Below, piece after piece: positions 44,541 to 64,000 of a DNA stretch of 64,000 nucleotides. The translations under genes were made by a program, and so were the position numbers. The stretch comes from Cytophaga sp. FL35 (GTDB lineage Bacteria; Bacteroidota; Bacteroidia; Flavobacteriales; Flavobacteriaceae), in assembly GCF_014349235.1 (NCBI RefSeq), contig NZ_JACSOH010000004.1, forward strand, positions 69,307 through 133,306, given 5' to 3'. The notes beneath the pieces are model-generated. The model was not told where the DNA came from. It did no database searches and saw only the letters and a program-made list of their open reading frames with translations. Each line of letters begins with the position of its first letter. Position 1 is the first letter of the stretch.

Positions 44541-47000
44541 TTGAGCCGGTTCCTAGTCCCTTTTCTTATGTTATGTACCTATGGCTTTTCCCAAAACATC
44601 AACTTTGACCAGTTGGGCAAGGAGAAATGGCTGCGCTATAATGGCGGTATTGCGGCCAATGGTGTGTATTATGATGGAACTGCCAATAGACAGGCTTTTA
44701 CCTATTATCTTACCGGCAGCCTCAATTTTAATGTGGCGGGCGTGTACAGCATACCGCTATCCTTTACCTACTCCAACCAAGAATTTAATTTTCCCAATCC
44801 GTTTAAGTTCAACAGGTTTAGTCTGCACCCATCCTATAAATGGGCCACTGCACATATTGGGGACGTAAGCATGACCTTTTCGCCCTATACCCTTTCCGGA
44901 CACCAATTTACAGGGGGCGGTTTTGATCTGAACCCGGAAGGAAAGCTTCAGATAAGTGCCATGTACGGTAGGTTTCTAAGGGCCACGGAATACAACGAGG
45001 AAGAACCTCAAGCATTAACGGCCTACCAAAGAATGGGATATGGCGTAAAGACCGCCTATGATTTTGATTTTATGAAACTGGGAGTGATTCTTTTTAAGGC
45101 CAATGATGAAGAAAATTCCCTAAAAGAACCCTTTCCCGTAGAATTGGGACTTGCCCCTAAGGACAATGCCGTTCTTTCCTTTGAGTCCATTTTCAAACTT
45201 TTTGACAAAGCTAGCATTCGTATGGAATATGCCATTTCCGGGGTTACGGAAGATACCCGTTTAACGGAAAACAGGCCTACGGCCGGGTTGCTTTCCTTTC
45301 TTTTGGAGGAAAACATCAGCACCCAATATTACAATGCCCTAAACGCCTCCTTGGATTACCCAGCCGGAAACGGTAGTTTGGGCGTGGGCTATGAACGTAT
45401 AGACCCGGATTACAAAACGCTTGGGGCCTATTATTTTAATAACGACCTGGAAAACGTTACGGTAAATGCGAGTCAGTCCATTTTTGAGAACAAGTTGAAC
45501 CTTAACGTGAATGCAGGTTTGCAGCGCGACAATCTTAACAATGCTAAATCTTCGGACCAGCAACGCGTGGTAAGTGCCATCAATGCCAATTACACGGCTT
45601 CGGAACGTTTGGGCATCAACGCTAGCTACTCCAATTTTCAGTCATACACCAATATCAGGGACCAATTTGATTATATCAACCAAGTGGGGGCGTATGACAA
45701 TGTAGACACCCTTAATTACCGGCAGATTTCCCAGAATGCCAATTTGGGCCTTAACTATATCCTTAAAAAGACCGAAACCAAACAGCACAGCACCAACCTC
45801 AACCTGGTATATCAAAACAGTACCAATCAGCAAGAGGGGGAGACCATTGAAGGCGGTGAAAATTCTTTTTATAACGGGGTAGCTTCCTATACATTGGGGT
45901 TTCCACAACAGGCACTAAATGTGTCCTTGGCCGGAAACGTTTCTTACAATACCGTAGCTGAAGACAACAACCTTATTCTTGGGCCTACTTTGGCCATTGG
46001 AAAACAATTTTTTGACAAAAAACTGCGGAGTAATTTTTCGAGTTCCTACAACAGTTCCTTTGCCAATGGCGAACAACAGAACAACGTGCTCAACTTTAGG
46101 CTGGGAAGCAATTACGCCCTGTACAAAAAACACAATCTGAACCTCAACTTTTTAATGTTGTTCAGAAACTCGGAGCTCAATACCGGTCGCGACCTAACCA
46201 TCACCTTTGGCTATAGCTATGCCTTTGATAATTTTAAGTTGGACATTGACCCGGGCAGCAGAACTCCCAACGAGCGTGACCCTAGAAATAAAGAAAACAC
46301 TTTAAGCTTCCGCTATAGAAACGTAACCTACAGCGGCACCATTCCCAATTTAAACGAGCAGCTTACCAGTGTATATACAAGTGCTCCGTTTAGGAATATT
46401 CCACTATTTAAAAAAGACGAACTTAAAATTCTATTGACGACGGTTAAAGAGCAAAAAAGAGAGGACAGGTACAAAGAAAGTGCACTTACCTTTTTGGCAG
46501 AGCTGTACGCCTTTGGCGATTTTGAAAAAGTGTACGAAGAAGCTTTATATAACGTTATTTCAAATATTCAAGACGATATGAAAAAAATTGATATGGCCTT
46601 GGAGAACCTGTTTGTAGCCAAGAAACTGGAAGTAGACGAGCACCCGTTGCATAATAAAACAGAGGAGAATTATTCCCAAAGAGATAAGGCTTTGGCTCCT
46701 CGATATCAGGCCTTAGTTGCAGAACAACAAACCCGATTGGAAAAATTGGTGGGCCATCGATGGATGGAAACCCAATTCGCAGAATTTACCAGTATGGAGG
46801 ACATTGAAAAGGGAACCGGATTTTTAAAAGAATTTAAAAAAGACTATGCATTAAAGTCTTTTGAAATGTTTGAGAAAACAGAAAATGTAAACCAACTGGA
46901 AACCTATTTGGAAAACGAAATCATTGATTTCTATTACAAAAAATCATTGAACTTGGTGAATCCGGAGTTTTTTGAGCTGAAGTATATTAATAGGAACTAG
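44541..47000 (+). CDS. large secreted protein of unknown function (beta-rich N-terminal half, helical C-terminal quarter)
   Basis: Signal peptide MSRFLVPFLMLCTYGFSQ. 819 aa. Confidence 0.5.
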   Translation: MSRFLVPFLMLCTYGFSQNINFDQLGKEKWLRYNGGIAANGVYYDGTANRQAFTYYLTGSLNFNVAGVYSIPLSFTYSNQEFNFPNPFKFNRFSLHPSYKWATAHIGDVSMTFSPYTLSGHQFTGGGFDLNPEGKLQISAMYGRFLRATEYNEEEPQALTAYQRMGYGVKTAYDFDFMKLGVILFKANDEENSLKEPFPVELGLAPKDNAVLSFESIFKLFDKASIRMEYAISGVTEDTRLTENRPTAGLLSFLLEENISTQYYNALNASLDYPAGNGSLGVGYERIDPDYKTLGAYYFNNDLENVTVNASQSIFENKLNLNVNAGLQRDNLNNAKSSDQQRVVSAINANYTASERLGINASYSNFQSYTNIRDQFDYINQVGAYDNVDTLNYRQISQNANLGLNYILKKTETKQHSTNLNLVYQNSTNQQEGETIEGGENSFYNGVASYTLGFPQQALNVSLAGNVSYNTVAEDNNLILGPTLAIGKQFFDKKLRSNFSSSYNSSFANGEQQNNVLNFRLGSNYALYKKHNLNLNFLMLFRNSELNTGRDLTITFGYSYAFDNFKLDIDPGSRTPNERDPRNKENTLSFRYRNVTYSGTIPNLNEQLTSVYTSAPFRNIPLFKKDELKILLTTVKEQKREDRYKESALTFLAELYAFGDFEKVYEEALYNVISNIQDDMKKIDMALENLFVAKKLEVDEHPLHNKTEENYSQRDKALAPRYQALVAEQQTRLEKLVGHRWMETQFAEFTSMEDIEKGTGFLKEFKKDYALKSFEMFEKTENVNQLETYLENEIIDFYYKKSLNLVNPEFFELKYINRN

Positions 47001-47123
47001 GGAGTTAGGAGTTAGGAAAATAAAAAAATGCATTTGGTAGAATTAAAATTTGAACTTTTAAAATTAGTCAGAAAAATGCGGCCCATATGGAATACTGCAT
47101 ACTGTCCACTGAAAAAGAATTGA

Positions 47124-47486
47124 ATGTATAACCAACTAACAGCATATAAAACGGCGTTTTCATTAGCTATGGAGGTCTTTGAAATGACAAAAGAATTTCC
47201 AAAAGAGGAGCGCTATTCCCTAACCGACCAGATTAGGAGAAGTTCCCGTTCCGTTTGTGCCAATATTGCTGAAGGTTACCGAAAAAGGAGGTATGTAAAA
47301 CATTTCGTTGCCAAACTTACAGACGCCGATATGGAAAATACAGAAACCCAAGTTTGGTTAAAGTTTTCATTGGAATGCCAGTACATAAAAGAAGAGACCA
47401 AAGTAGAACTGTACAACAAGACCGTAGAAGTAGGGAAATTGCTTGGTTATATGATCAATAATCCTAAAAAATTCTGCAGCAAATGA
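47124..47486 (+). CDS. four-helix-bundle protein (23S-rRNA-intervening-sequence protein family)
   Basis: 120 aa. AYKTAFSLAMEVFEMTKEFPKEERYSLTDQIRRSSRSVCANIAEGY signature of the TIGR02436-like family. Its stop overlaps the next ATG (ATGA). Confidence 0.8.
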   Translation: MYNQLTAYKTAFSLAMEVFEMTKEFPKEERYSLTDQIRRSSRSVCANIAEGYRKRRYVKHFVAKLTDADMENTETQVWLKFSLECQYIKEETKVELYNKTVEVGKLLGYMINNPKKFCSK

Positions 47487-50400
47487 TATTTAAAACCATA
47501 AAACATATCATCCAAACACTGCAAAACCGCATCCAGCAAACGGCAAAACTGAGCGCTGCTCACTGCCTACTGCAATCTGCAATCTGCCTACTATTTTTAA
47601 CTTTTAACTACACAATCGCCACCGCCCAATCTTTTCCCGTACAGGTAATTCCGCAAGTGACGCCACCGCCACCTATATATTTTTCGGAATACGCCAACGA
47701 GAGTACGGTTAACAGTCCGTTGCGGGTACAGTTGATCTTAAACGATTTTGAGATTGTCAATCGGGAAGTCCGCCTAAGAGTTTCCTTTGAGGGTAGTGGC
47801 ATCAGTTTTCAAAGTAAGGACCTGGTTACCGGCGCTTCGCCCCTATTTTTGGAAGGAGGCGTTCCCCTGGTACTTACCAACGTAGAGCTGGCACCCTATT
47901 TTAGATATGAAAACCTCAACGGTATTTCGGGTAATGTATATGGCAATGCCATCCCTGAAGGTGCCTATAACTTCTGTTTTGAGGTATTCGATGTGCTTAC
48001 TGGTAGTCGTCTGTCCCAAAAATCGTGTGCCATTAGTGTAGTCTTTCAGAACGAACCGCCTTTTTTGGTATCCCCCAGAAATAAGACCAATGTAGAAGAA
48101 ATCAATCCGCAGAACATTGTATTTCAGTGGACGCCCAGACACGTAAATGTTAGCAATGTAGAATACGAGCTTAGCATTGTGGAGATTTGGGACACGCAAG
48201 TGGACCCCCAACAGGCCTTTTTAAGCTCGCCTCCCGTTTTTCAGACCGTTACCAATGCCACTACCTATGTATACGGACCGGCAGATCCGCTCTTCCTATC
48301 CGGAAAAAATTATGCTTGGCGGGTACAGGCAAAGGCGAAACAAGGGTTGGAAGAGGTGGGCCTTTTTGAAAACCAAGGCTATAGCGAAATCTATTCCTTC
48401 AGTTATGCCGGCAGTTGTGATTTGCCCTTGGGCATTAACCATGAGGTTAAGGGGAGCACCAACGCCAATATATTTTGGGACGATTTCTCTACCGACGTAC
48501 CGGAATACACCCTGCGTTACCGACAAAAAAACGTGGAGGGGGCGGAGTGGTTTCCGGCCAAAACCACCAGTAATATTCTCACCCTTTGGAACTTAAAACC
48601 GGGCACCACTTACGAGTACCAACTCAGTAAAAAATGTAACACGGTGTACAGTGACTGGAGCTTGTTAAAGGAGTTTACTACCACCTTGGAGTTTGAGGAA
48701 GAAAGCGTTCTGGATTGTGGCATAGCCCCCAATATTAGCGTCACCAATAAAGACCCCCTACCAAATATGGCATCGGGTAGCATTTTTAAAGCGGGCGACT
48801 TTCCGGTAACGGTGATGGAAGTAAGCGGTAGCAATGGCCGTTTTACGGGTAAGGGCTTTGTAAAAATGCCCTACCTAGAGAATCTTAAGGTGTATGTAGA
48901 GTTTACCAATATTCTGGTAAATACAGATCAAGAAATGGCGGAAGGCTCTGTAAGAACCGCCTATGACCCAACTTGGCGAAATATACTGAATACGGCTGAT
49001 TTGGCCCAGCGGGCCGGGGAGTTTGTGGATGCCGTAGGAGATTTGGGAGAAAGCGTTGACGATATTCTTGAAGATGTATTTAACACAGACGACGAAGACG
49101 AAGAGAATGCCCCACCGGTAGATCCAGAAATGGAAGAAGGTGAAACAGTGCCCCCTTCTACCGAAACTTCTGGCGAGAATGAGACAGACACGAATACCTC
49201 GGACGCATCAAATGATGCTGACAACGAAGAGTCATCATCTGGTTCCACAAGCAACGATAGTAATGGCTCTACGCCGAACACAGGTGGTTCAACAGGTGAT
49301 AATTCTTCTGACAACCCTAATCCTGACACCAATGAAGAAGATGAGCAAGAGGTAGTAATAGTTTACAATGGTTCTGAATATAGAAATGGTGATATCTTGG
49401 AAATTAAATATTCCAACAACTCAAGTAAACATTTATTCACCTTAGCAAATCACGCCAAAGATTGTAAGATAGATTGGAGCACACATGCTGACATGAATGA
49501 ATTAGCAGCAACGTCCTTTGCGGGAAGTGGGCATCAAATAGAATTAAATTTAAATAATAAAGAGTATTTAACACTACAAGCAGAATATTGGACTCCTTCT
49601 GACAGTTATCCAGAAGGAGAATCACAGAAAATAAGAATTGTAATAAAAATTTTACGTGAGCAATTTGACTTAAAAGAATTATATGCAAAACATAGTAAAA
49701 GAAGAATTGCAAAATCTGGACAAACCTTATATTTACTTGACGACACTGGTCTTTCTGAAAGTTCCAAATTTAAAAAAGTTGAATTTGGGGTTAAAATTGA
49801 CCCTAAATTAAAAGAATCTGAAATACACGATTTAAATCTTGGTTGGTATTATGGTTCAAACAAGTCTGTCTCAAAAGATGAGGCTAGTTTAAATATCTCT
49901 AGAAATATTAGGCTTAAAGAGGGGTTTGATAATACTACTGTAAAAGCTGGATACCCTAAAGCTAAAGAAAAAGATATCAATGTTAAGTGGGAAGACCAAT
50001 ATGATGTCTCTACAGATTACTTAACCAAATTCTCAAAAATACTAACTTTTTTAGAACAGTTTAATAGAATTTCTTCAAAATTTAAATCCGTTTTACCCTG
50101 CGAGGCTAGTATTTTAAATGATTTTAACGCCCTCGTAGGTGCGAAAAAAATAGCTTTTAAGTTAAGAACCTATAATGAAGAAGACGATGAAAGTAGAGAA
50201 TTATATGACGTGTTACAAACTAACTTGAAACTACAATCCTCAAGTTTAGCCGATTTGCAATGTGGTAAGGATTTAGGTTATTTAGGCGTTTCATTAGGAA
50301 AGTTTTACGGTGGGATGAGTTTAGGCGCGAATATAAATTTTAGATATTCTTTAAAAACTAAAAATGAAACGTTAGAGCGGAAAACTGTTCCCGAAATATC

Positions 50401-50719
50401 TGGTGGATTCGTATTAACAACTGATTTTGGTTTTAAAACTGCCGAAATCATTGATGAATACTTCTTCTTAAAAGCTGCTATTGAAATTAAGGCAGGTACT
50501 AAAACAGTTTACCCCTTTAAAGGGAAAAATTATCAAATAGGCAGTTATCTCTATTTAGGTAAAACGAATTTTGTAGTCGATGGTTATATTGATACTTGGC
50601 TAACAGGAAGGGAAGATTTCAATTTCAAGTACTTAATTTATGATTCTCAATGGGAAAGCGATCAAAGACTAATTATCGACTTGAAAGCACAAGACATTTA
50701 TTTAGAAACAGGTAATTAA
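47483..50719 (+). CDS. 1078-aa secreted protein with fibronectin-type-III-like domains, an acidic low-complexity linker and a compositionally foreign (AT-rich) C-terminal domain
   Basis: Signal peptide. FN3-like motifs (YAWRVQAKA, YEYQLSKKC...DWS). D/E/S/T/N-rich linker at about 49040-49340. GC drops to about 28% from about 49340 to the stop. Confidence 0.6.
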   Translation: MIFKTIKHIIQTLQNRIQQTAKLSAAHCLLQSAICLLFLTFNYTIATAQSFPVQVIPQVTPPPPIYFSEYANESTVNSPLRVQLILNDFEIVNREVRLRVSFEGSGISFQSKDLVTGASPLFLEGGVPLVLTNVELAPYFRYENLNGISGNVYGNAIPEGAYNFCFEVFDVLTGSRLSQKSCAISVVFQNEPPFLVSPRNKTNVEEINPQNIVFQWTPRHVNVSNVEYELSIVEIWDTQVDPQQAFLSSPPVFQTVTNATTYVYGPADPLFLSGKNYAWRVQAKAKQGLEEVGLFENQGYSEIYSFSYAGSCDLPLGINHEVKGSTNANIFWDDFSTDVPEYTLRYRQKNVEGAEWFPAKTTSNILTLWNLKPGTTYEYQLSKKCNTVYSDWSLLKEFTTTLEFEEESVLDCGIAPNISVTNKDPLPNMASGSIFKAGDFPVTVMEVSGSNGRFTGKGFVKMPYLENLKVYVEFTNILVNTDQEMAEGSVRTAYDPTWRNILNTADLAQRAGEFVDAVGDLGESVDDILEDVFNTDDEDEENAPPVDPEMEEGETVPPSTETSGENETDTNTSDASNDADNEESSSGSTSNDSNGSTPNTGGSTGDNSSDNPNPDTNEEDEQEVVIVYNGSEYRNGDILEIKYSNNSSKHLFTLANHAKDCKIDWSTHADMNELAATSFAGSGHQIELNLNNKEYLTLQAEYWTPSDSYPEGESQKIRIVIKILREQFDLKELYAKHSKRRIAKSGQTLYLLDDTGLSESSKFKKVEFGVKIDPKLKESEIHDLNLGWYYGSNKSVSKDEASLNISRNIRLKEGFDNTTVKAGYPKAKEKDINVKWEDQYDVSTDYLTKFSKILTFLEQFNRISSKFKSVLPCEASILNDFNALVGAKKIAFKLRTYNEEDDESRELYDVLQTNLKLQSSSLADLQCGKDLGYLGVSLGKFYGGMSLGANINFRYSLKTKNETLERKTVPEISGGFVLTTDFGFKTAEIIDEYFFLKAAIEIKAGTKTVYPFKGKNYQIGSYLYLGKTNFVVDGYIDTWLTGREDFNFKYLIYDSQWESDQRLIIDLKAQDIYLETGN

Positions 50720-51165
50720 TGCTATATAAAATTTTCAACAGATTATTTCAATTTTTCTTATTTACCATTCTATTCGTTCTATTCATTAGCAGTATAAGAG
50801 TAGTACTTAACAATATAAAATATTTTGGAATTATTAAATCTGGGAAAATAATAGATATAGATTATACCAGAGGTTCCAAATCGACTGATGAGAGAGGCAC
50901 CTATATGAATACGATATTAACGGAGGGTAATAAAGATACGGTTTATGGAGGAAGTCAGAATCAATATAAAAGGGGAGACAAAATAAAATTTCGCTTTCGA
51001 GGAATAGGAGGAAATATAATATTTGAAGTAAACGGATTGAAAGTACGCTCCAAATATGATACTTGGGATTATCTTTCTCCTATTATTCTACTTTTTTCAT
51101 CATTTATGATTTACAAAATATTAACTCATTGGTTTATACCATTTTTAAATAAAATCAGAAAATGA
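50719..51165 (+). CDS. 148-aa two-TM membrane protein, AT-rich, translationally coupled (TAATG) to the preceding gene. Candidate immunity or accessory protein.
   Basis: N- and C-terminal hydrophobic helices. About 25% GC. Overlapping stop/start on both sides. Confidence 0.45.
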   Translation: MLYKIFNRLFQFFLFTILFVLFISSIRVVLNNIKYFGIIKSGKIIDIDYTRGSKSTDERGTYMNTILTEGNKDTVYGGSQNQYKRGDKIKFRFRGIGGNIIFEVNGLKVRSKYDTWDYLSPIILLFSSFMIYKILTHWFIPFLNKIRK

Positions 51166-52439
51166 GTAAAATAATTTTTTTATCAATCTTTTTCATTTTT
51201 TACGGACTGTATTCACAATCACAGAATATTGATGGCATATGTTCAGAAGCTGATTTATTCGGGATTCCTGTGGATAATAACCAAATTACATATCATAAAT
51301 ATGCGCCAGTTCTACAACTAAAAAAGAGGTACGCTTCATTTGAAGAAGTTAAAAATCGAACACCCGAAGAATTACTAATTTCTCAAATGTCAGTACAAAA
51401 TAATAAATGGCTAGCTTATAATTTTGAAAATGATATCAAATGGAAAGAAGAGCAATTTAAAAGAATCACATCTCAAGACCCCGAGAAAAATTACATCGAA
51501 TTAATCCGAAAAATAACATACCAAATAAACGGTACAAATTATTCCATTTTAAGGTTGAAAATTTATGATGACAGAAAAAGTAAACCCGCCACTTTAAGCC
51601 TAATGGCAAGTTGTAATAAAGGGAAATGGGCCTTCGTTAAAAATAAGACACGATCTCCGTTAGAATTTTTAATGTCCAACTTAAACCTCCAATATCTTGA
51701 TAAGACCTTAGAAAATGAAGATTCGGATAATTCAAGGTTCAATGAATTAATAAAATCTTCATGGAGGTCGAACCGATTAAGTCCTACGAATATCTATAGA
51801 ATAATCGGTGATAACATGCTGGTTAACGACGGTACTCTTGATAAGGTTTATGAAAGAGCCAACCCTTCCTCTCAACAAACAGAATTTCAAGAATACCATG
51901 AAAATTTTGTATTCACTAAAAACACAATAAACGTAAACTATCTTATCCCCCTAACTGATCAAGAATTCTGTTACTATTTTCCAAATCAACTATCACAATT
52001 TGATTCGAAAAGTATAGCTCAGCTTATTGAATACTTAGAAAACGAAAACATAAACCAAGAGGGTAAAAAACCAACTATTTTCCCTATTCATAAATTTAGA
52101 TACCGACAGGACAATAAAGTGTTTGTAATTGTCAAATATTCCATTAGGCTTGAGAACGAAGAAGCCAAAATAAAAACAGAGGTATTTGATTATAATAGAG
52201 GTAGATACAAAGTACAGAATGAGATAAATCCAGTAAATAGTAATTTAAAATATTTGCTGAATGTTGCTAAATCAGATTTTATAATACAAATATCAAATGG
52301 TGAAAACAATGCAGATTACCCCGAAGTAAATGCTTTAAAACCCGAAACTAAGGACGCCAATGAAATTCTTAACCTGAAGGAACTCATACAAGTAATTACC
52401 AATAATAGTTCAAGTTTGGAAAAGTATTTAAACAATTAA
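51162..52439 (+). CDS. 425-aa secreted protein of unknown function, AT-rich, coupled (ATGA) to the preceding ORF
   Basis: Signal peptide MSKIIFLSIFFIFYGLYSQ. No recognisable domain. Same low-GC block. Confidence 0.45.
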   Translation: MSKIIFLSIFFIFYGLYSQSQNIDGICSEADLFGIPVDNNQITYHKYAPVLQLKKRYASFEEVKNRTPEELLISQMSVQNNKWLAYNFENDIKWKEEQFKRITSQDPEKNYIELIRKITYQINGTNYSILRLKIYDDRKSKPATLSLMASCNKGKWAFVKNKTRSPLEFLMSNLNLQYLDKTLENEDSDNSRFNELIKSSWRSNRLSPTNIYRIIGDNMLVNDGTLDKVYERANPSSQQTEFQEYHENFVFTKNTINVNYLIPLTDQEFCYYFPNQLSQFDSKSIAQLIEYLENENINQEGKKPTIFPIHKFRYRQDNKVFVIVKYSIRLENEEAKIKTEVFDYNRGRYKVQNEINPVNSNLKYLLNVAKSDFIIQISNGENNADYPEVNALKPETKDANEILNLKELIQVITNNSSSLEKYLNN

Positions 52440-52540
52440 CATTTAAATTCTTGTTTCCCCGCTAGCGCGGGCGTCACGCTCGTGCCAGCGGCAGCAAAAA
52501 GTAAAGGCAAGGATAATTATAATGAGCATTAAATAATTAC

Positions 52541-52646
52541 AAAACACCCCTGTAAAAACCGGTTTGGTTTTTACTGTCCCCTGTAGGGGACAATAACACG
52601 TAACAATTCCCCCTTAGAAGGGGGGGCCGCCGCCGCAGGGCGGGGG
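52541..52646. repeat. GC-rich structured repeat, copy A: aaaacacccctg + hairpin 1 (aaaaacc/ggttttt) + hairpin 2 (gtcccc-tgta-ggggac) + hairpin 3 (ccccc-ttagaa-ggggg) + cgcagggcggggg
   Basis: Shares an ordered set of motifs with 53154..53248. 60-70% GC in a roughly 40% GC genome. Confidence 0.55.
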
Positions 52647-52730
52647 ATGTATTCACCCCTGAATGAGGTGACGTTGTGCCAACATCGGGCGAGCAGAAGC
52701 GATGGTGGGGGTGTTAATGATGTAAGTACC

Positions 52731-52765
52731 AAAACACCCTTAAAGTCCCCTTTAGGAGACAATTA
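52731..52765. repeat. partial degenerate third copy of the same repeat (aaaacaccc...gtcccct-ttag-gagac-aat), abutting the DUF559 start
   Basis: Matches the leader + hairpin-2 portion of copies A and B with two substitutions. Confidence 0.35.
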
Positions 52766-52772
52766 AAAAGTA

Positions 52773-53147
52773 ATGAAAAACAGAATAATACCATATAACC
52801 CAAAATTGAAGGAACTGGCAAGGCAGCTACGCCAAAACAGCACCTTGGCAGAGGTATTATTATGGCAAAAAATAAAGAACAGGGCCTATGGGGTGCAGTT
52901 CTATAGGCAAGTGCCCATATTGGAATATATAGTGAACTTTTATTGTCATGAACTCATGTTTGCCATCGAGGTAGACGGTAACAGTCATGATCACAAATAT
53001 GAATATGATGCCGATAGACAGGCCAAACTAGAGGAGCAAGGCGTAAAATTTTTAAGGTTGGGAGACCATGAAGTAAAAAAAGAAATGTTCAGCGTACTGT
53101 TAAAAATTGAAGAAACCATAAATCAATTAAAGAACGTTAGGAATTGA
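52773..53147 (+). CDS. DUF559 (Vsr/restriction-endonuclease-like) domain protein
   Basis: 124 aa. Pattern L...QN.T.AE..LW..I...G.QF.RQ.PI..YIV.FYC.EL..AIEVDG..H ... QG.KFLR matches the DUF559 endonuclease-domain family. Confidence 0.8.
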   Translation: MKNRIIPYNPKLKELARQLRQNSTLAEVLLWQKIKNRAYGVQFYRQVPILEYIVNFYCHELMFAIEVDGNSHDHKYEYDADRQAKLEEQGVKFLRLGDHEVKKEMFSVLLKIEETINQLKNVRN

Positions 53148-53153
53148 TACTAT

Positions 53154-53248
53154 AAAAACACCCCTGTTTTGGCTTTTCCAAAACTGTCCCCTCAAGGGGA
53201 CAATTAATATTCCCCCTTTGAAGGGGGTGCTCGCAGGGCGGGGGGGGG
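53154..53248. repeat. GC-rich structured repeat, copy B: aaaaacacccctg + hairpin 1 (ttttgg/ccaaaa) + hairpin 2 (gtcccc-tcaa-ggggac) + hairpin 3 (ccccc-tttgaa-ggggg) + cgcagggcggggggggg
   Basis: Same element order as copy A. The hairpin-1 stem is fully base-swapped but still pairs. Ends 18 nt before the 1603-aa gene. Confidence 0.55.
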
Positions 53249-53265
53249 TGTAAAAAATAAAATAG

Positions 53266-56200
53266 ATGAAAAACAACTACCCACATATTTTACTTTTCAT
53301 TCTATGCAGCCTGTTTTGCAGTTGCTTCACATTTGCTTATGAAGGCCCCATAAGCCTAGCTGATAGCACTCTTGTAAAAACAACAGATTCTGTTCTTACC
53401 AAAGAAACCCTGCCACAATCTGCCGAGGCCTTTGATCCCATGGCCCATTGGGCAAAAGAAAAAAACAAAAAAGTGACGGTTGCAGACGCTACTACTGCTG
53501 GGTATAGAAGTTTTCCAGAACTCGACTCCTATACCAACAATCTTTACCTGCCTCCGAGCAACGGTTTGGCTGAGTTTACACCAGAATATGTGCAAAACCT
53601 GTTTAAGATAGATAATAATACGCAAGAGCTTTTAAACGCCGGTAAAGAGGTATTTGATATTATCGATAGGGAAAAGCGTTTTATCAATATCATTGGGGGC
53701 CAAGAAATTATAGAACTGCCCGTAGGTATTACGCAACCTATTTCCGAGCACTCCTTTATCTCCTTGGGCATCGTAAGTATGGAATATCATACCAACTACA
53801 CTGTGGTTGATCTGTTCGCCAAGATAAAACTGGCAGAATTAGGAGGTGAAGAACTCTTTTTTGCCGCCAATAACGTTAAAATTTCCCGTGAAGGCGGTAT
53901 TTATGATGAAGCCACTTTAAGTCTTTTAGGCGATTTTCCTATAAGCATGAACGGTGGACAGTGGTTGGTCACCCTCAAAGGGGGAAAGGGAGAACGTGGC
54001 AAAGGAGACGGACAAACCTATGTGACCATCAACTGCGAGGGCAAGGTAAAAGAACTGGCTTTTAACGCAGATGTGCGGGTAGCCAAAACCGTGGCCGTTC
54101 CCTTAAATGAAGACGGTTCGTTAAAATTTCCGGCAAAGACGGAACCGGGCACCGGAGAAAACCCTGTTGGTAACGATAGCTACGTGGGGGCTAATATTAA
54201 ACTGCAAACGGCCACATTAGAGGATATGCTCTTTGAGTTAGACCTACCTTTCTTTGAACTTAAAGCGTTACCTCGTTGGGGCTTTAAAATGGAAAAAACG
54301 GTTCTGGACCTAAGTGACACCAAAAACGCCGAGGGAATGCTATTTCCTGATATTTACCGTACTCAAGGTTTGCTACAGGGAAATGAAAACCTATGGCGGG
54401 GCTTTCACTCCAAGGAAGTGCGGGTCATGTTGCCCCCTGAGTTTAAAAAGAAAGGTTCCGATAAACGTATCTTCGTTGGGGCGCAAAATCTGTTTATAGA
54501 CAATTTTGGGGTCTCAGGAGACTTTTATGCCACCAATGTTTTGGACATTAATGAGGGAGATGCCAGTAAATGGCAGATTTCTGTAGACTCTATTGGCGTT
54601 GATTTAAAGGTAAATAGATTTATTAAGGCTGGCTTTAACGGGGATATTGTACTGCCCATTAGCGATCAAAAATCTACGGGTGGCACATTGGCGTATAAAG
54701 GATTGATTACCGCAGATCAATATTACTCCGTTAACGTTGAGGCTACTGACGATGTAAGTTTTGATGTTTTTAAGGCTCAGGCAAAAATCTACAAGGGATC
54801 TTATGTAAAATTAGAAGTAGAAAACGATCGCTTCTACCCAGAGGCCAATCTTACCGGGCAAATGGCCTTTAGTGCACAACAAAAAAATCAATTAAACGAA
54901 GCTGAAGGCGATGATGGTGTAGAATTGGAATTTGACGGACTTTCGTTTGAGAATTTTAAAATACAGACTCGTGAGCGACCTTATCTTTCCATTGGCCGTG
55001 CCGGTTTCAAAGATGATATTAAACTGCCCAAACTCGCAGGTTTTGAATTGGGCTTCTACGATGTAGAAATTACCTCCGATGAGAACGACAACGCCACCCT
55101 GGCACTTAATTGTTATGTAAACCTAGACGATTCCGGTATTCATGGCGATGTTGGCTTAGAAATCAATGGGGCCTTGGAACAGGGTGATTTATTAAAATGG
55201 CGCTACCAAGGAATAGAGGTTACCGATATTGAGATTGATGTAAAACGAAAGTCCTTTGAGTTTTACGGAAAAGCATCCTTTTTTAAGGACAATCCTATTT
55301 ATGGCAAAGGCTTTTCTGGGGAATTGCAGTTATATGCCGAAGATTTGGGCATAGAAGTAGGGGCCAGAGGTCTTTTTGGGGCCGTAGATGGATACCGTTA
55401 TTGGTTCGTTGATGGTCATGGGCGACCGACAAAAAATAACAATACGAATTTCACCATTTTCGACATTGGCGGCGGTGTTTACCACCACATGCGAAAAGCA
55501 GGCATGGATGAAACTGCTACCTCCCTATCCGGAATCAAGTACCAACCGGACATCAATACTTCACTAGGTTTTAAGGCTTTGGCCGCTTTTGAAATAAAAA
55601 GTGGGGCGGCCTTTACGGCCTTGGCAGGTATAGAAATCGCTTTTAACAGCCAAGCGGCTGGTGGCGGTGTTAGTAGATTAGGCTTCTACGGTGCTGCCAT
55701 GTTAATTCAGGGCAAAAGTGGTGGTGGCAATCCGCAAACCCCATTCGGCACCGTGGATCAAATGCAGCAAACCGTTTCCGCAAAGGAACAGGCATTGGGC
55801 AATTTCCATGAGCTCTCCATTGATAAAGAGGGTCTTAAATATTTTGCCGATGAAGTATTTCCCGAATTGCTGACAGGAGAAGAACTATTTGCAGCGCAAG
55901 TAGCCATCGATTTTGATTTTAGAAATAGGGCCTACTGGGGGCTGCTAGATGTTTATCTAAATGCTGGAGCCATCAGGGGCGAAGGTGAAAAGAACCATTT
56001 AGGTAGATTGGAGTACTACAATTCGCCTGACGATTGGTACATTTATGTTGGTACCCCGACCCACCGTTTTGGACTTGCAGATATACCCATTGGTCCGTTC
56101 TTGGCGAGCATCAACATGTATTTTATGACGGGCACCATATTACCAGACCCCGCCCAGCCGCCACAGAATGTAATAGATATTCTGCATTTATCTGGCAATG

Positions 56201-58077
56201 AGTTAGAATTCGGAAGAAACTTTGACCAAGAACTGGCAAGAGGAACAGGCTATGCCTTTGGGGCCAAATTTCAGCTGGGTATGGGCTTTGACTGGGGCCT
56301 TGTCTATGCCAGTGTAAGTGCAGGGGCCGGTTTCGATTTAATGATGCGTGATTTTGGTGATGCACATTGTAAAGGAAAGGAAGGACCAATAGGAATGGAC
56401 GGGTGGTACTCCACCGGCCAAATGTATGCCTATCTACAGGGTGAAATAGGTGCCAGAATCAAAGTTTTTGGCATTAAAAAAGACATCCCCATTCTATCGG
56501 CTGGCATAGCCGTTTTAGCACAAGCTCAACTTCCAAACCCCTGGTTCATTAAAGGTTACGCCGGTGTTGATATCAAAGTTCTAGGACTGGTTAATATACA
56601 TACCCGATTGAAGGTTATTATAGGGGAAGAGTGCGAAATTATTGGAAAAACAGGTTTGCAAGATGTGGTTATGATTTCTGACATTACCCCAAGGGACGGG
56701 TTGACCGATGTGGATGTTTTCGATGCTGTACAAGTAGCATTTAATGCTCCAATTGGCGAGCCTATCTATATTGAGGAGGAAGGAGGCAAAAAAACCTATA
56801 GAATTAGCTTGGATGAACTTATCGTAAAAAATGCCAATGGAATTATCGAAGGTTCTCAAGAACTCAATGAAAATAGGGATCTACTAACATTCAACTCTTC
56901 AGAAGTTTTACCTCCGGAAGATGAAATCACTGTTATAGCAAAAGTTTCATTTGAAGAGAAATCAGGAGGAAATTGGATAGTTGTCACCGAAAACGGCTCT
57001 CCCGTTATTGAAGAAAAAACGGTAACCTTCACAACCGGTGATGCTCCTAGAAAAATCCCTATTAAAAACATAGAATACATGTACCCTATGGTTGAACAAC
57101 AATATATGTTGCCGAAGGAATTTTCGAAAGGGTTTGTACAATTATATAAAGGACAAGATTATTTATTTGGTAATGGCCTAAGTGATGAACTCTACTTTAT
57201 TGACCAAAACGGAACTAAAACAAAAGCCGATTTCAGTTACAACAAAGCTGATAAACGACTCAATTTCTCCATTCCCAGTTTGGATAAAAAAAGCTCCTAC
57301 ACCTATGCTCTGATTACCTTAAACCCAGGTGATATTGAAGAAAATCAAGTAATGACAGCGGTTGAGTTCAATCAGATTTCTGAAGACCTTGAAATATCAA
57401 ATAACACCATTGTAGGGAACGCTAGCAATGGTGCTTTTATAAGCAGACTAAATTTTAATTTCAACACAAGTGAGCACAATACCTTTAAACAAAAAATACA
57501 ATCGATTAAAGCGAACAAATATGTAAATCAAAGCTTATCCAATGCAGCGCAACTAGCGGTTTACACCAAAGACTATGAGCCTTTTGAGCTTGCTGAAATA
57601 GCACCTTCAAGGTTTAATGGAGGGGTCCCATTAATAATTGGCAATGCTCTCAATAACAATAGGTATTTTAAAAACGAGATTTATCCAACGATATATGAAA
57701 ACTATCCCTTGGACAACCGTTTTGAAGTTCAAAGAGACGCTGCAATATATGGTCTTCCACCAACTAGACCCATCTCCGTTTCGCAAGTTTATGTTACCTA
57801 TGCTCAAAATCAACCTGAAAACAGTTTTCTAAAACAACGTTTTCCTTTTTACTGGGATATTGCTCAAGTATACCGAGAAGATTTCTATCACTTGCAATAT
57901 GAAATTAGTAATTTCTATGATGACCCGGAAAACCCGAAAAGAAAAGATTTTGAATACATAATTTTTTCAAGATTTCCCTATATAAATAACGAGACCTACC
58001 AGGTAGAATTTAAATATCACCTTCCACATTCCAACAACGGCAATAAGGTGATATTTGATTACAAAAATGAATTTTAA
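53266..58077 (+). CDS. 1603-aa secreted protein of unknown function
   Basis: Signal peptide MKNNYPHILLFILCSLFCSCF. Single uninterrupted ORF. Its stop overlaps the next start (TAATG). Confidence 0.6.
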   Translation: MKNNYPHILLFILCSLFCSCFTFAYEGPISLADSTLVKTTDSVLTKETLPQSAEAFDPMAHWAKEKNKKVTVADATTAGYRSFPELDSYTNNLYLPPSNGLAEFTPEYVQNLFKIDNNTQELLNAGKEVFDIIDREKRFINIIGGQEIIELPVGITQPISEHSFISLGIVSMEYHTNYTVVDLFAKIKLAELGGEELFFAANNVKISREGGIYDEATLSLLGDFPISMNGGQWLVTLKGGKGERGKGDGQTYVTINCEGKVKELAFNADVRVAKTVAVPLNEDGSLKFPAKTEPGTGENPVGNDSYVGANIKLQTATLEDMLFELDLPFFELKALPRWGFKMEKTVLDLSDTKNAEGMLFPDIYRTQGLLQGNENLWRGFHSKEVRVMLPPEFKKKGSDKRIFVGAQNLFIDNFGVSGDFYATNVLDINEGDASKWQISVDSIGVDLKVNRFIKAGFNGDIVLPISDQKSTGGTLAYKGLITADQYYSVNVEATDDVSFDVFKAQAKIYKGSYVKLEVENDRFYPEANLTGQMAFSAQQKNQLNEAEGDDGVELEFDGLSFENFKIQTRERPYLSIGRAGFKDDIKLPKLAGFELGFYDVEITSDENDNATLALNCYVNLDDSGIHGDVGLEINGALEQGDLLKWRYQGIEVTDIEIDVKRKSFEFYGKASFFKDNPIYGKGFSGELQLYAEDLGIEVGARGLFGAVDGYRYWFVDGHGRPTKNNNTNFTIFDIGGGVYHHMRKAGMDETATSLSGIKYQPDINTSLGFKALAAFEIKSGAAFTALAGIEIAFNSQAAGGGVSRLGFYGAAMLIQGKSGGGNPQTPFGTVDQMQQTVSAKEQALGNFHELSIDKEGLKYFADEVFPELLTGEELFAAQVAIDFDFRNRAYWGLLDVYLNAGAIRGEGEKNHLGRLEYYNSPDDWYIYVGTPTHRFGLADIPIGPFLASINMYFMTGTILPDPAQPPQNVIDILHLSGNELEFGRNFDQELARGTGYAFGAKFQLGMGFDWGLVYASVSAGAGFDLMMRDFGDAHCKGKEGPIGMDGWYSTGQMYAYLQGEIGARIKVFGIKKDIPILSAGIAVLAQAQLPNPWFIKGYAGVDIKVLGLVNIHTRLKVIIGEECEIIGKTGLQDVVMISDITPRDGLTDVDVFDAVQVAFNAPIGEPIYIEEEGGKKTYRISLDELIVKNANGIIEGSQELNENRDLLTFNSSEVLPPEDEITVIAKVSFEEKSGGNWIVVTENGSPVIEEKTVTFTTGDAPRKIPIKNIEYMYPMVEQQYMLPKEFSKGFVQLYKGQDYLFGNGLSDELYFIDQNGTKTKADFSYNKADKRLNFSIPSLDKKSSYTYALITLNPGDIEENQVMTAVEFNQISEDLEISNNTIVGNASNGAFISRLNFNFNTSEHNTFKQKIQSIKANKYVNQSLSNAAQLAVYTKDYEPFELAEIAPSRFNGGVPLIIGNALNNNRYFKNEIYPTIYENYPLDNRFEVQRDAAIYGLPPTRPISVSQVYVTYAQNQPENSFLKQRFPFYWDIAQVYREDFYHLQYEISNFYDDPENPKRKDFEYIIFSRFPYINNETYQVEFKYHLPHSNNGNKVIFDYKNEF

Positions 58078-60170
58078 TGAATATACGCCTATTTCAACAT
58101 ATAATTCCTTTTCTACTTTCGGTGACTCTTCATAGCGGGCCCATCTTAGCGCAAAGCACTGAAAACGACCAATGGCAACTTGCCATTAAGCATCGAGTAA
58201 AAGATGACGGTATTTGCATTAGGTGGGCAGTAAATACTGTGGAAGCATGGCAGGCCGGCGTACAATATGGTTTTATCATTGAAAGGACATTGATAAACTC
58301 TACCTCGTCCAATACCAAAAACAATGAAAAACTATTGTTAACGCCCACCCCCTTAAAACCAAAGCCGGAACAGGAGTGGCAATCGGCAGCGATGAACAAT
58401 GACATGGCTGCCGTAGCAGCACAGGCTATTTATGGCGACACCTTTTCAGTGAACAACCAAGAAGAGGAAAGCAGGTTTATGCAGGTAATCAATATGGCGT
58501 CTGAGAGAGAGCAGAGATTCGGTTTTTCGTTATATGCCATGGATCGCGATTTTAGCACCGCACAACTTGCAGGGTTTGGTTTTGTAGACAAGGATATTGA
58601 AGCAGGTGCTACTTATTTGTACCATATAAAATTAGCCTCTCCAACGCAGGATGACAGTCAAAAACTGGAGTATGGGTTTGTTGCACATACGGATGAAATA
58701 GAAGAGCTACCCAAACCCAGGGATTTTGTGGTATACTATTACAATGATGCCTTTCTATTGATATGGGAATACGATTCTTACTTACCCTATTACAACTCCT
58801 ATGATATTGAACGTTCTGAGAACGGTCAAGATTTTACGAAAATCAATAAAGTGCCTATAACAAAACTGGCCAGCACCGATGTTAGTGGGATATCTTACAC
58901 AGACAGCATTCCAGTTTACGACAAAAAGTTTTGGTATCGAATAAAAGGGCATTCCTATTTTAATGACGTGGGTCCAGTTTCGGATACTATGAGCGTAACC
59001 GCTTACAAGCAGCTGTTGGTGGCACCGGAAATAACCCAAAAGGATATTATCTCCGATAAAGAAGTAAAGTTACGATGGTCTTTTGCCAAGGACGAAGCTT
59101 GGAAAGTTACCAATTTTGACCTTCTCAGGGCAGATGATGCCATTGGTCCCTATACTACCGTACAATCAAATTTGAGCCAAAATGCGCGGGAAGCTTATTA
59201 TAATAAGCTAACTGAGAGTAATTATTTTAGGGTTAGGGCAAAAGGAATAGCTGGGGATGTACAAGATTCGTCTCCCGTTTTGATTCAACCCATAGACTCC
59301 ATTCCTCCTGCACAACCCAGAGGATTGAAAGGTACAGTAGATACCTTGGGAATTGTCAAAATCTCTTGGGAACCGAATACAGAACTCGACCTAAAAGGCT
59401 ATGACGTTTTCCGCTCTAATACTAAAAATCAAGAATTTACGCGCTTGAATAAGAATCAAATTACCGGTCAGTCGTATACGGATACTATCAATATAAAGTC
59501 CTTTAACAAAGAGGTGCTCTACCGTATACAAGCGGTAGATAATCGTTATAACGCCTCGATTCCTTCGGATACTCTGGTAATGAAAAGGCCTAACCGAGCA
59601 GCACCTTTGAGCCCTTTGTTTTCGGATTACAGAATTGCACAAGACTCCGTTCATCTCCATTGGCTACCCAGCACCTCTGAAAATATTCAGAAACAAATGC
59701 TTTTTAGAAGTTTTATAGACCAACCTGAAAATTGGGAAAAAATTTTTGAGACGGAGACCAATAACCTTAGTACGTTTATTGACCTAAACATAGAGGCTGA
59801 CACAAAATATGCATACACCCTAATAGCGGTTAACGAGTTTGGCATTGAAAGTAATCCATCTCCCCCATTGGGTCTTGTTACAGGAAAAGAATTAACAAGA
59901 GAAAGCATTAAAGGTATTTATGCCCAAGTAAATAGGGAGTTACACCTTATTGATATTAGTTGGAGAGGTGACTTAACCAATGTATCGGAACTTAGGTTGT
60001 ACCGTAAGACGGAAACGTCTCCTTTTAGGCTATATGAGACCTTGGCACCAGATTCCAAAAAATATACGGATACCCGTTTACAAGTTGGCACTTCCTATGG
60101 CTATGCCATACAAGCTATTTTTAATGATGGTACCATAAGTACCTGGGAAGAAATCATGGTAACCTATTAA
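58077..60170 (+). CDS. 697-aa secreted protein with multiple fibronectin-type-III-like repeats
   Basis: Signal peptide. Repeated about 90-aa modules ending in Y(R/F)(V/I)(R/Q)A..G..S.PS motifs. Confidence 0.6.
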   Translation: MNIRLFQHIIPFLLSVTLHSGPILAQSTENDQWQLAIKHRVKDDGICIRWAVNTVEAWQAGVQYGFIIERTLINSTSSNTKNNEKLLLTPTPLKPKPEQEWQSAAMNNDMAAVAAQAIYGDTFSVNNQEEESRFMQVINMASEREQRFGFSLYAMDRDFSTAQLAGFGFVDKDIEAGATYLYHIKLASPTQDDSQKLEYGFVAHTDEIEELPKPRDFVVYYYNDAFLLIWEYDSYLPYYNSYDIERSENGQDFTKINKVPITKLASTDVSGISYTDSIPVYDKKFWYRIKGHSYFNDVGPVSDTMSVTAYKQLLVAPEITQKDIISDKEVKLRWSFAKDEAWKVTNFDLLRADDAIGPYTTVQSNLSQNAREAYYNKLTESNYFRVRAKGIAGDVQDSSPVLIQPIDSIPPAQPRGLKGTVDTLGIVKISWEPNTELDLKGYDVFRSNTKNQEFTRLNKNQITGQSYTDTINIKSFNKEVLYRIQAVDNRYNASIPSDTLVMKRPNRAAPLSPLFSDYRIAQDSVHLHWLPSTSENIQKQMLFRSFIDQPENWEKIFETETNNLSTFIDLNIEADTKYAYTLIAVNEFGIESNPSPPLGLVTGKELTRESIKGIYAQVNRELHLIDISWRGDLTNVSELRLYRKTETSPFRLYETLAPDSKKYTDTRLQVGTSYGYAIQAIFNDGTISTWEEIMVTY

Positions 60171-63100: not shown

Positions 63101-64000
63101 GGCCTAGCGGAGGGAGACTATTCCATTTTGGTTACGGATGCCAATGGGTGTGTTCTAAACGAATCCTTTATCATTACTGAACCTGGCGAACTTATAGTTA
63201 CTGCATCCCAAACGGAAGTCATTCCATGTAGCGGAGATGCCTTCGGTGAAATTGCCGGACAAGTTACAGGTGGCGTAGCGCCTTATATTCTGGAGTGGTT
63301 TCAGCAAATAAATGGTTCTGACATTAGGCTGGCGGAAGATTCCAATCTTTTGGCAGATTTAGGTCCTGGAAGCTACTTCCTTAGAGCTACCGATGCTAAT
63401 GGAATTAACGCGGATTCTGGCATAGTGCTCATCACTGAACCGGATTTGCTAACGGCTTCGGTACTGAGCACCACCTCTATCTTATGTAGCGGGGAAGCGA
63501 CAGGGGCTGTAGAAGTTACTTTTTCGGGTGGAACGGCTCCCTATGAATTTTCTTGGAGCAATGGTGATTCCAGCCTCAACTTGACCAATGTACCTTCTGG
63601 AGAATATACCCTTTTCATATCTGATGTGAATGGCTGCTATACAGAACTTACAGCGGTAGTAGAAGCGGCACCAGATGCCTTACAAATTAGCAATAGAGAC
63701 CTCCTCAATGTTTCGGAATACAATGCTAATGACGGTAGTATATCATTGGAATTATCGGGAGGGGCCTTCCCTTTCGATATAGAGTGGACTCAATTATCCA
63801 ATGGGCTGGCAATAGGCGACCAAGAAAATATTTCCCGTCTTGCGGCCGGAAGGTACCAAGTTACCATTTCAGATGATAATGGTTGCCGACTGACGGAAAT
63901 TTTTGAAATTACCCAGCCTGATATTGTTGAGGAAACAATCATACAACCGGCTTGTGAAGGAGATACAGATGGAAGCATTTCCCTACTCGTAAATCAGGGC
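60181..64000 (+). CDS. 5' part of a giant SprB-repeat cell-surface adhesin (gliding-motility / T9SS cargo-like). Continues beyond the window.
   Basis: Hand-translated open frame from the ATG at about 60181 to the window end. Signal peptide MKNLLSFLVLYCTLGGIF. More than 12 tandem copies of the SprB-repeat signature (C.G..(N/D)G.I.....GG..PY.Y.W). Not in the ORF track because no stop falls within the window. Confidence 0.65.

Follow-up and report, generated by a model that had tools for sequence, protein, structure and literature searches.

An AT-rich exchangeable cassette in a TANFOR-like polymorphic-toxin locus of Cytophaga sp. FL35 and other marine Flavobacteriaceae

In a stretch of 64,000 nucleotides from contig NZ_JACSOH010000004.1 of Cytophaga sp. 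FL35 (the window in the following), a gene for a protein of 1078 amino acids (aa) with a fibronectin type III (FN3) domain changes its composition abruptly and forms, together with two open reading frames (ORFs) behind it, an AT-rich block of 3.1 kb (49340-52439). These two ORFs encode a 148-aa protein with two transmembrane segments (2-TM) and a 425-aa exported protein. Why should a single gene consist of two such different parts, and what ties the second part to two small genes? An earlier note, made from the sequence alone, had proposed a polymorphic toxin with its immunity genes, ending in a compositionally foreign domain and delivered from a gliding or type IX secretion system (T9SS) surface protein. 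Comparison with related loci gives good support to the block being an exchangeable cassette of a TANFOR-like polymorphic-toxin locus of marine Flavobacteriaceae. The coordinates of all features are listed in Table 1.

Exchangeable C-termini at a conserved locus

A homology search with the 1078-aa protein yielded 489 homologues, and the classes described here were drawn from the best 120 of them. The N-terminal ~520 aa, comprising the conserved N module, recur in more than 120 proteins at 45-79% identity, whereas among the best 120 of the 489 the matches end at about aa 500-640 of the query and the C-termini beyond differ. Precomputed Pfam assignments for the homologue C-termini include ten toxin families in total, namely PF14412 (AHH), PF14436 (EndoU), PF01129 (ART), PF14424 (deaminase), PF14414 (WHH), PF12639, PF15652, PF13930, PF21111, and PF14021; the named domains include WHH and colicin-DNase, Tox-SHH, and Endonuclease_NS_2. 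The same N-terminal part is found with displaced C-termini at the same locus, a test that the earlier note had proposed, and the orthologues do not all carry one low-GC C-terminus, as they would if it were ancestral.

The neighbourhoods of six homologues and 79 species-representative loci of Flavobacteriaceae were compared, including 12 loci of class A (see below) in all. Near the biotin genes, the syntenic order is a gene of ~810-820 aa, the FN3 gene, a variable segment, a gene of ~1550-1700 aa, a gene of ~690 aa, and an SprB-repeat gene with a Por_Secre_tail. The window holds this set completely, including the SprB-repeat ORF from 60182, and the same locus adjacent to bio genes is present in Zobellia, Arenibacter, Cellulophaga, Pseudozobellia, and others, with differing small genes downstream. 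FN3 ORF lengths over the 79 species loci range from 616 to 2463 aa. In four loci (L017, L018, L029, and L046) the scaffold gene does not reach far beyond the N module, its FN3 ORF having 616-771 aa. In L017, from Maribacter polysiphoniae, the toxin is a separate downstream gene; indeed, a M. polysiphoniae gene with an FN3 protein upstream appears in the BaCT list of Jana, Salomon, and Bosis (2020, PMC7073777), and by the printed coordinates the protein listed there abuts the FN3 ORF. Five loci (L005, L009, L026, L031, and L033) carry IS200/Y1-transposase-like genes within the variable segment.

Two classes of C-terminus can be distinguished. Class B, comprising most of the best 120 homologues, has a length of 1200-1890 aa and matches the window protein only over aa ~30-540 at 55-79% identity; many of its members end in the recognised toxin domains named above, and the small ORFs downstream of class B toxins change with the toxin. 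Class A, to which the window protein belongs, has a length of 1025-1120 aa, its members having in common the N module (~70%), the linker, and aa 641-840 (27-55% identity), while the last ~240 aa are mostly not common. Class A makes up nine of the 79 species loci (~11%), and both classes occur at the locus within the genus Arenibacter. The end of the N module (~49040-49075) is class-specific, reading ...GE(F/L)FEGDNDLDE in class B and ...GDLGES(V/I)DDIL(E/K) in class A; by analogy with the demarcation motifs of other polymorphic toxins, this could possibly be a junction motif.

The small genes behind the FN3 gene follow its C-terminal tip. Locus L001 shares the tip of the window (69%) despite an N module of 51% identity; its partners, of 144 and 427 aa, show identities of 47% to the 148-aa protein and of 46% to the 425-aa protein. 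Locus L002 has another tip, and BLAST finds no similarity of its 159-aa and 401-aa proteins to those of the window, the 401-aa protein being a member of the 425-aa family according to a hidden Markov model (HMM). Homologues of the 148-aa and 425-aa proteins were found only with class A ends, tracking tip similarity. Replacement of a whole cassette is visible within Zobellia uliginosa, where a class A strain (L089) and the class B strain DSM 2061 (L013) show 96.8% DNA identity from the 819-aa gene to nucleotide ~1570 of the FN3 gene (aa ~523), have cassettes that do not match each other, and are 92% identical again in the ~1650-aa gene. The L089 cassette holds genes for 170, 234, and 207 aa, that of L013 a 1919-aa class B gene and a 168-aa ORF. 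The differing downstream genes that the earlier note wanted looked for were encountered both in the co-variation with the tip and in the cassettes of these two strains.

Orphan pieces of such cassettes were found as well. In Tenacibaculum maritimum (L007), an orphan module (4439-6508) lies behind the main class A gene and its partners of 141 and 422 aa. The module has a 543-aa ORF, which starts in the linker, covers both C-terminal parts, C1 and C2, at 53% identity to the window, and has a short remnant of the N module just upstream. Behind it there are an intact 140-aa 2-TM gene (42-43% identical to the 148-aa protein by BLAST) and a 41-codon signal-peptide stub of a 425-like gene, cut by an insertion sequence (IS) remnant. 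In Z. uliginosa DSM 2061, although of class B, a 903-bp remnant upstream of the 819-aa gene (5450-6352) contains the last ~125 codons of a class A tip and an intact 2-TM gene, 98.7% identical to the class A strain, whose own upstream island holds two paralogues of the post-toxin ORF of the class B strain. Orphan-remnant patterns of this kind are typical of toxin/immunity loci. The small-ORF island of the two strains (2400-7000 in L013, 2300-7100 in L089), lying between M61 peptidase/acetyltransferase genes and the 819-aa gene, also holds paralogues of the class B post-toxin ORF in both strains and a 126-aa fragment of a different 425-family variant. It looks like an orphan-immunity island, and there is no such island in the window.

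What, then, does the change in composition mean? The block has a guanine plus cytosine (GC) content of 30.6%, compared to 39.9% in the remaining window and 39.5% in the whole window, and is the lowest-GC segment of 3.1 kb within the 64 kb, about four standard deviations under the mean; a maximum-likelihood fit of two boundaries places the change-points at 49353 and 52456. The drop is seen in GC and in GC at third codon positions (GC3) alike. Within the 1078-aa ORF, GC3 amounts to 48% up to codon 619 and to 24% in the last 460 codons; the 148-aa and 425-aa ORFs have 23% and 28%, respectively. Amino-acid composition was rejected as the sole cause of the drop, because GC3 halves and the shift is, therefore, found at the level of codons. 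The step follows the linker of aa ~531-620, just where the earlier note had seen it; its figures of 42% and 28% were approximate (measured: ~46% to 27-32%). The abrupt return at 52440 is likewise real and is caused by clustered palindromes, rich in GC, on both sides of a DUF559 gene, and reading of the sequence verified that the three ORFs are coupled by TAATG and ATGA overlaps.

The step does not coincide with a point of exchange. Third-position identity to L008 and L009, which have the closest N modules (Pseudozobellia sp. WGM2 and Flavobacteriaceae MAR_2009_75; compared region 44541-48500), is 40-46% in bioF, a flanking housekeeping gene a few kb away, 64-65% in the 819-aa gene, 65-84% in FN3 aa 46-340, and 45% from aa 341 onward, showing a junction near nucleotide 48500 (aa ~340), about 850 bp upstream of the GC step. 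The junctions located thus lie inside the N module or where it ends (aa ~340 in the window, aa ~523 in Z. uliginosa). Judging by these identities, the left conserved part of the locus seems to have a more recent inter-genus common ancestry than the surrounding chromosome. Over its first 45 aa, where the signal peptide lies, the FN3 protein shares only 39% identity with relatives to which it is ~98% identical over aa 46-340.

A GC dip was found in all 60 measurable loci, whatever the cassette, with the segment from the N module to the ~1600-aa gene lying below both flanks; its mean is 6.2 points, against ~10 points in this window. Over the 60 loci, the GC content of the variable segment (0.29-0.42) changes with that of the flanks (0.33-0.50) at a regression slope of 0.53, which is consistent with a cassette pool common to the loci. 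The dip is a family-wide property of this pool. Because it occurs in all 60 loci and the junctions lie upstream of the step, the step is neither a recombination junction nor a sign of recent import, and a recent direct import into this genome was rejected. Orphan DNA acquired horizontally typically has low GC and no database matches, so that one might also think of a chance fluctuation or of an unrelated acquired island without any functional tie to the FN3 gene; but the block continues the reading frame of a conserved gene, translational coupling joins its three ORFs, homologous three-part cassettes exist in other genera, the block is the lowest 3.1 kb of the window, and the dip recurs in 60 of 60 loci. 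The comparative data contradict such an origin, which we regard as extremely improbable.

The class A end and its partner proteins

The cassette of the window encodes two C-terminal parts of the FN3 protein, C1 and the C2 tip. In an AlphaFold2 model made from 16 class A sequences (mean predicted local distance difference test score, pLDDT, of 72), C1 (aa 621-845) forms two β-sandwiches with a pLDDT of ~90, followed by a helix and, over aa ~887-1076, by long β-hairpins with 20-27 residues per strand and a pLDDT of 50-65. At this low model confidence, the tip resembles membrane β-barrels. Foldseek matches in the Protein Data Bank (PDB) were dominated by the immunoglobulin (Ig)-like half, with nothing informative on the tip. 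N898, E900, and R905 are invariant across the alignable class A tips. C2 of this protein matches only homologue P0002 (69%), the Tenacibaculum-type P0121 and P0122 (53-62% over the aligned regions), and, weakly, P0112; the tip of P0002 is better conserved (69%) than its scaffold, with an N module of only 51% identity.

The earlier note had recognised no family in the three AT-rich products, and this was borne out, as Pfam and NCBIfam gave no match beyond FN3. In the 1078-aa protein, Pfam matches are restricted to FN3 (aa 324-386) and Pur_ac_phosph_N (aa 338-400), the scans of 16 class A C-termini against Pfam and NCBIfam revealed nothing significant, and neither the 148-aa nor the 425-aa protein nor any of 22 members of the 425-aa family showed a match in these databases. 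PDB sequence searches with the N-module profile and with the class A profile yielded nothing but FN3 between them.

The 148-aa protein has hydrophobic segments at aa 4-33 and 122-140 according to hydropathy, with a loop of ~88 aa between them. The N-terminus of the 425-aa protein is signal-peptide-like by inspection, no dedicated predictor having been run, and the Sec signal of the FN3 protein was judged by inspection and hydropathy. Its secondary structure suggests that the 425-aa protein has two similar α+β halves, which fits the split versions in other species: members of its family are encoded either as one protein of ~400-427 aa or as a pair of neighbouring ORFs (~234-250 and ~209-229 aa) that both possess a signal peptide. 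The split form was found downstream of eight class A genes (L019, L026, L031, L033, L037, L044, L048, and L089); the gene in the window is the fused form. Both halves end in a similar N-x-P-x-Y-P-x-I-N...L-N motif, suggesting an internal duplication. Only three relatives of the 425-aa protein were found in a database of 5.8e9 proteins. By HMM, every one of the 12 class A genes has a member of the family behind it and the class B variable regions have none, and a 2-TM gene (140-167 aa) directly follows the FN3 gene in seven of the 12 class A loci and is absent from class B variable segments. All class A partners possess a signal peptide or transmembrane segment, while the first ORFs after class B genes mostly have neither.

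With its position equivalent to that of known toxin domains, its co-varying partners, the retention of orphans, and partners that are exported or lie in a membrane, the cassette of the window may well encode an undescribed envelope-acting toxin together with its protective proteins; on these four grounds, we lean slightly towards this reading. In such a mechanism, the conserved Sec-exported N module of ~520 aa, with its remote TANFOR-like part and FN3, would serve as a trafficking or display scaffold in a fixed gene set, and homologous recombination inside or at the end of this module swaps everything downstream including the cognate small genes. In most species, the swapped part is an extended stalk bearing a domain of nuclease, deaminase, or ADP-ribosyltransferase type, with a cytoplasmic immunity gene behind it. 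The rarer class A cassette of the window instead has the linker, a pair of Ig-like domains, and a β-rich tip; this tip may be barrel-forming or membrane-inserting and could act on the cell envelope of a neighbouring bacterium, e.g., by membrane permeabilisation, with the co-transcribed 148-aa 2-TM protein and the exported two-domain 425-aa protein presumably protecting the producer. The comparison shows the exchange of modules, the co-variation of tip and partners, the orphan remnants, the envelope location of the partners, and the dip across the family, while toxicity, a role in immunity, a mechanism by pore or barrel, and the route of export and delivery are inferred.

Several observations weigh against an envelope-acting toxin. 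Pfam, NCBIfam, PDB, and Foldseek revealed neither a fold nor a family of toxins or enzymes in aa 621-1078, and C1 has an Ig/cadherin-like fold of adhesin type. A profile of the tip found 36 proteins among 1.84e9 representatives, all of them class A or fragments thereof, and no other scaffold; typical polymorphic toxin domains are common to several delivery systems, though this is not obligatory. The 2-TM gene is absent from five of the 12 class A loci. The 98.7% identity of the Z. uliginosa remnants means that they are young, so that their retention may reflect recency rather than selection. The AlphaFold2 model of the 425-aa protein, built from a four-row alignment, was unusable (pLDDT 45). 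Finally, the class A partners are homologous, though divergent, and keep the same architecture across variants, which also fits co-evolving structural partners. From the toxin and immunity set of the earlier note, the organisation is thus supported by displacement and co-variation; a toxin fold was not recognised, and the 2-TM gene accompanies only part of the class A ends. A structural or adhesin fold, the finding that would have told against that proposal, was seen in C1, and in the tip a barrel-like appearance at low confidence only, so that toxicity rests on the logic of the locus.

These points bring up the question whether class A ends are toxic at all. The β-rich tip might anchor the protein in the outer membrane of the producer in an autotransporter-like manner and display the Ig-like domains and the N module, with the 425-aa and 2-TM proteins as chaperones or assembly factors and with hypervariability and low GC content arising from diversifying selection, e.g., by phages or grazers. 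The adhesin-type Ig fold of C1, the confinement of the tip to the FN3 scaffold, and partners that form one homologous family instead of unrelated cassettes all favour such an anchor, as does the ...QF terminus of many class A proteins, which recalls the C-terminal Phe of outer-membrane proteins (OMPs). However, the window protein and its closest tip relatives lack a terminal aromatic residue (...YLETGN, ...YFTD, ...IYLE), and no autotransporter or OMP match was obtained in Pfam. Class A ends, moreover, occupy the exact position of bona fide toxin domains with immunity genes, and orphan tips kept with intact 2-TM genes, along with reciprocal immunity-like islands in one species, are unexpected for assembly factors. 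The difference from type Va autotransporters is similar, as the window protein has no Pfam match to an autotransporter β-domain and orthologues hold soluble toxins where that domain would be. On balance, we consider an anchor the main rival of the toxin, though a doubtful one and clearly less likely than the toxin.

Another possibility is that the cassette does not kill but acts in self/non-self recognition or adhesion, its end being a variable ligand on the surface that co-varies with its membrane partners, in the manner of identity-recognition systems. It would agree with the allele-like diversity at conserved architecture in both tip and partners, with the tandem Ig/cadherin-like domains, and with a dimorphic 1603-aa neighbour, which suggests balancing selection on the whole locus; yet the same scaffold bears killing effectors, i.e., nucleases, deaminases, and ADP-ribosyltransferases, in most species, and the orphans described above are of the kind seen at toxin/immunity loci. 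We, therefore, regard a pure recognition determinant as improbable.

Relation to known systems

The closest published system is the TANFOR class of polymorphic toxins found among Bacteroidetes (Jana, Salomon, and Bosis 2020, PMC7073777). These toxins have a Sec signal, a TANFOR domain, FN3, and polymorphic C-terminal toxins, with immunity genes downstream and with SprB or T9SS C-terminal domain (CTD) proteins as neighbours, and T9SS export has been hypothesised for them; toxin types are AHH, WHH, EndoU, deaminase, TNT, and ART-type, some scaffold and toxin genes are split, and the class is restricted to Bacteroidota (PMC7073777). The window protein shows the layout of the table in that paper, with a Sec signal and FN3/Pur_ac_phosph_N at aa ~300-400, and it is accompanied by an SprB-repeat ORF, the counterparts of which end in Por_Secre_tail in relatives. 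In contrast, the TANFOR model TIGR02542 reaches only E=0.06 and 13.3 bits against a cutoff of 67 on the window protein (aa 128-181), and the fixed five-gene locus, the class A C-terminus, and the exported partners are not described in PMC7073777, the tables of which have no Zobellia or Arenibacter entry. TIGR02542 matched three of ten N modules with 12-15 bits (best E=0.0056), always colinearly, and was the sole NCBIfam model with any signal. A remote homology of the N module to TANFOR is plausible. Since the scores are far under the cutoff, we call the family TANFOR-like and do not count it as a member. In the literature searched, we found no later paper on TANFOR delivery and no experimental follow-up of the class.

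Delivery from a gliding or T9SS surface protein, as envisaged in the earlier note, has the neighbouring SprB-repeat gene as its only link to T9SS. The FN3 protein itself showed no match to a T9SS CTD in Pfam/NCBIfam, neither of type A (Por_Secre_tail) nor of type B, and its C-terminus is the variable tip.

Contact-dependent inhibition (CDI; CdiB/CdiA/CdiI) is similar in having a putative outer-membrane partner, a large exoprotein with a variable C-terminus, and an immunity gene, in displacement at a conserved junction, and in orphan modules located downstream. Among the CdiA-CT toxins, some act as ionophores in membranes and have immunity proteins that are small and integral to the membrane. 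The FN3 protein and five members of the 819-aa family, however, showed no two-partner secretion (TPS), haemagglutinin-repeat, Omp85/POTRA, or ShlB domain, and the locus differs further in its lack of a VENN-type motif, in its phylum, and in its extra conserved genes (1603 aa, 697 aa, and SprB-like). A bolder reading would make the class A end a new antibacterial effector, with a membrane-inserting β-barrel domain on Ig-like domains, neutralised by exported immunity proteins and delivered between Flavobacteriaceae by an undescribed dedicated apparatus of the invariant neighbours (the 819-aa, ~1600-aa, and ~690-aa proteins and the SprB-like adhesin). If true, the locus would be a Bacteroidota counterpart of CDI, but in all its parts together we hold this to be unlikely, at about one chance in five.

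The 148-aa and 425-aa genes also have a parallel in colicins A, E1, and Ia and in VasX/Tme-type effectors of type VI secretion systems (T6SS), which act on the envelope and have a small inner-membrane immunity protein encoded next to them. Those effectors are α-helical pore formers of recognised families, whereas the tip in the window is β-rich, barrel-like at low confidence, and of no family. Among the general features of polymorphic toxins, the family shows a conserved N-terminus with alternative C-termini, toxin domains in its members, co-varying small genes, and orphan modules; a toxin domain common to other scaffolds (Rhs, CdiA, or adaptors of T6SS and type VII secretion systems) was not found for the class A end.

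Polymorphic toxins shape competition in dense microbial communities. We know of no established route for their delivery in Bacteroidota outside T6SS, the TANFOR toxins of 2020 being, to our knowledge, the sole published class. Among marine Flavobacteriaceae that live in association with algae, the locus family is widespread, with examples in Zobellia, Maribacter, Arenibacter, Cellulophaga, Aquimarina, and Tenacibaculum (here also in the fish pathogen T. maritimum); it is annotated merely as "fibronectin type III domain-containing protein" and stays under the cutoff of the TANFOR model. It offers a fixed set of candidate delivery genes, a natural, isogenic-like pair of Z. uliginosa strains of class A and class B, and an uncharacterised, apparently non-enzymatic, envelope-directed C-terminal module with exported partners. 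If this module is toxic, it would represent a new effector/immunity family; if not, toxin scaffolds would alternate with structural ends at one locus.

Neighbouring genes and the edges of the variable segment

Table 1. Features of the TANFOR-like locus in the window (positions in nucleotides of the window; residue ranges refer to the FN3 protein)
Feature	Position	Strand	Remarks
819-aa gene	44541-47000	+	Signal-peptide-like N-terminus; next to the FN3 gene on its upstream side in each locus retrieved, 58-94% aa identity
120-aa four-helix-bundle gene	47124-47486	+	23S rRNA intervening sequence (IVS) protein / bAvd-like; PF05635 E=6e-33, PF22296 E=5e-10
FN3 protein, 1078 aa	47483-50719	+	Exact match to "fibronectin type III domain-containing protein" of Cytophaga sp. 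FL35; polymorphic scaffold gene
Conserved N module, aa 46-530	47618-49072	+	TANFOR-like region, FN3, and further conserved part; common to all family members
Linker, aa 531-620	49073-49342	+	Acidic, Ser/Thr/Asn-rich, low complexity; weakly alignable, among class A proteins only
C1, aa 621-845	49343-50017	+	Two β-sandwich Ig/cadherin-like domains; start of the AT-rich block
C2 tip, aa 846-1078	50018-50716	+	Helix, then long β-hairpins; hypervariable in class A; candidate effector part
148-aa inner-membrane-type protein	50719-51165	+	TAATG-coupled to the FN3 gene; candidate immunity protein
425-aa exported protein	51162-52439	+	ATGA-coupled; candidate periplasmic immunity protein or, alternatively, assembly factor
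Right edge of the variable segment	52440-53265		GC-rich palindromes flanking the DUF559 gene
124-aa DUF559 endonuclease-like gene	52773-53147		DUF559 E=3e-28
1603-aa and 697-aa conserved downstream genes	53266-60170	+	In all loci long enough to show them
SprB-repeat protein	60182-64000	+	Runs off the window; PF13573 E=2e-48

On the left side, the 819-aa protein has no relative in Pfam, NCBIfam, or PDB (five family members were scanned for families) and may be an outer-membrane or export component. Between its gene and the FN3 gene, the 120-aa gene overlaps the FN3 start by ATGA and is an insertion specific to this genome, as relatives have a gap of 60-120 bp at this point. Its bAvd-like match could hint at a diversity-generating retroelement, but stand-alone four-helix (bAvd-like) genes are common in Bacteroidota. 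No match to a reverse transcriptase was obtained for the flanking ORFs scanned for families, no search having been aimed at reverse transcriptases or at template/variable repeats.

On the right side, the 1603-aa gene (53266-58077) is dimorphic, being 63-71% identical in some species, e.g., Z. barbeyronii, M. polysiphoniae, and M. polysaccharolyticus, and ~31% in others (compared with L003-L040), the latter including species with the closest 819-aa gene (91-94%). Its type is independent of both the identity of the 819-aa gene and the toxin class, which suggests either allelic lineages of deep origin or that the right side of the locus has recombined, too. Neither the 1603-aa nor the 697-aa protein matched a family, and a PDB sequence search with the 1603-aa protein returned nothing. 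The palindrome GTCCCCTnnAGGRGAC has just three copies in the whole window, at 52576, 52745, and 53186; 52440-52772 and 53148-53265 also hold ccccgctagcgcggg and cccccttagaaggggg-type hairpins. The palindromes around the DUF559 gene look like repetitive extragenic palindromic (REP)-type elements.

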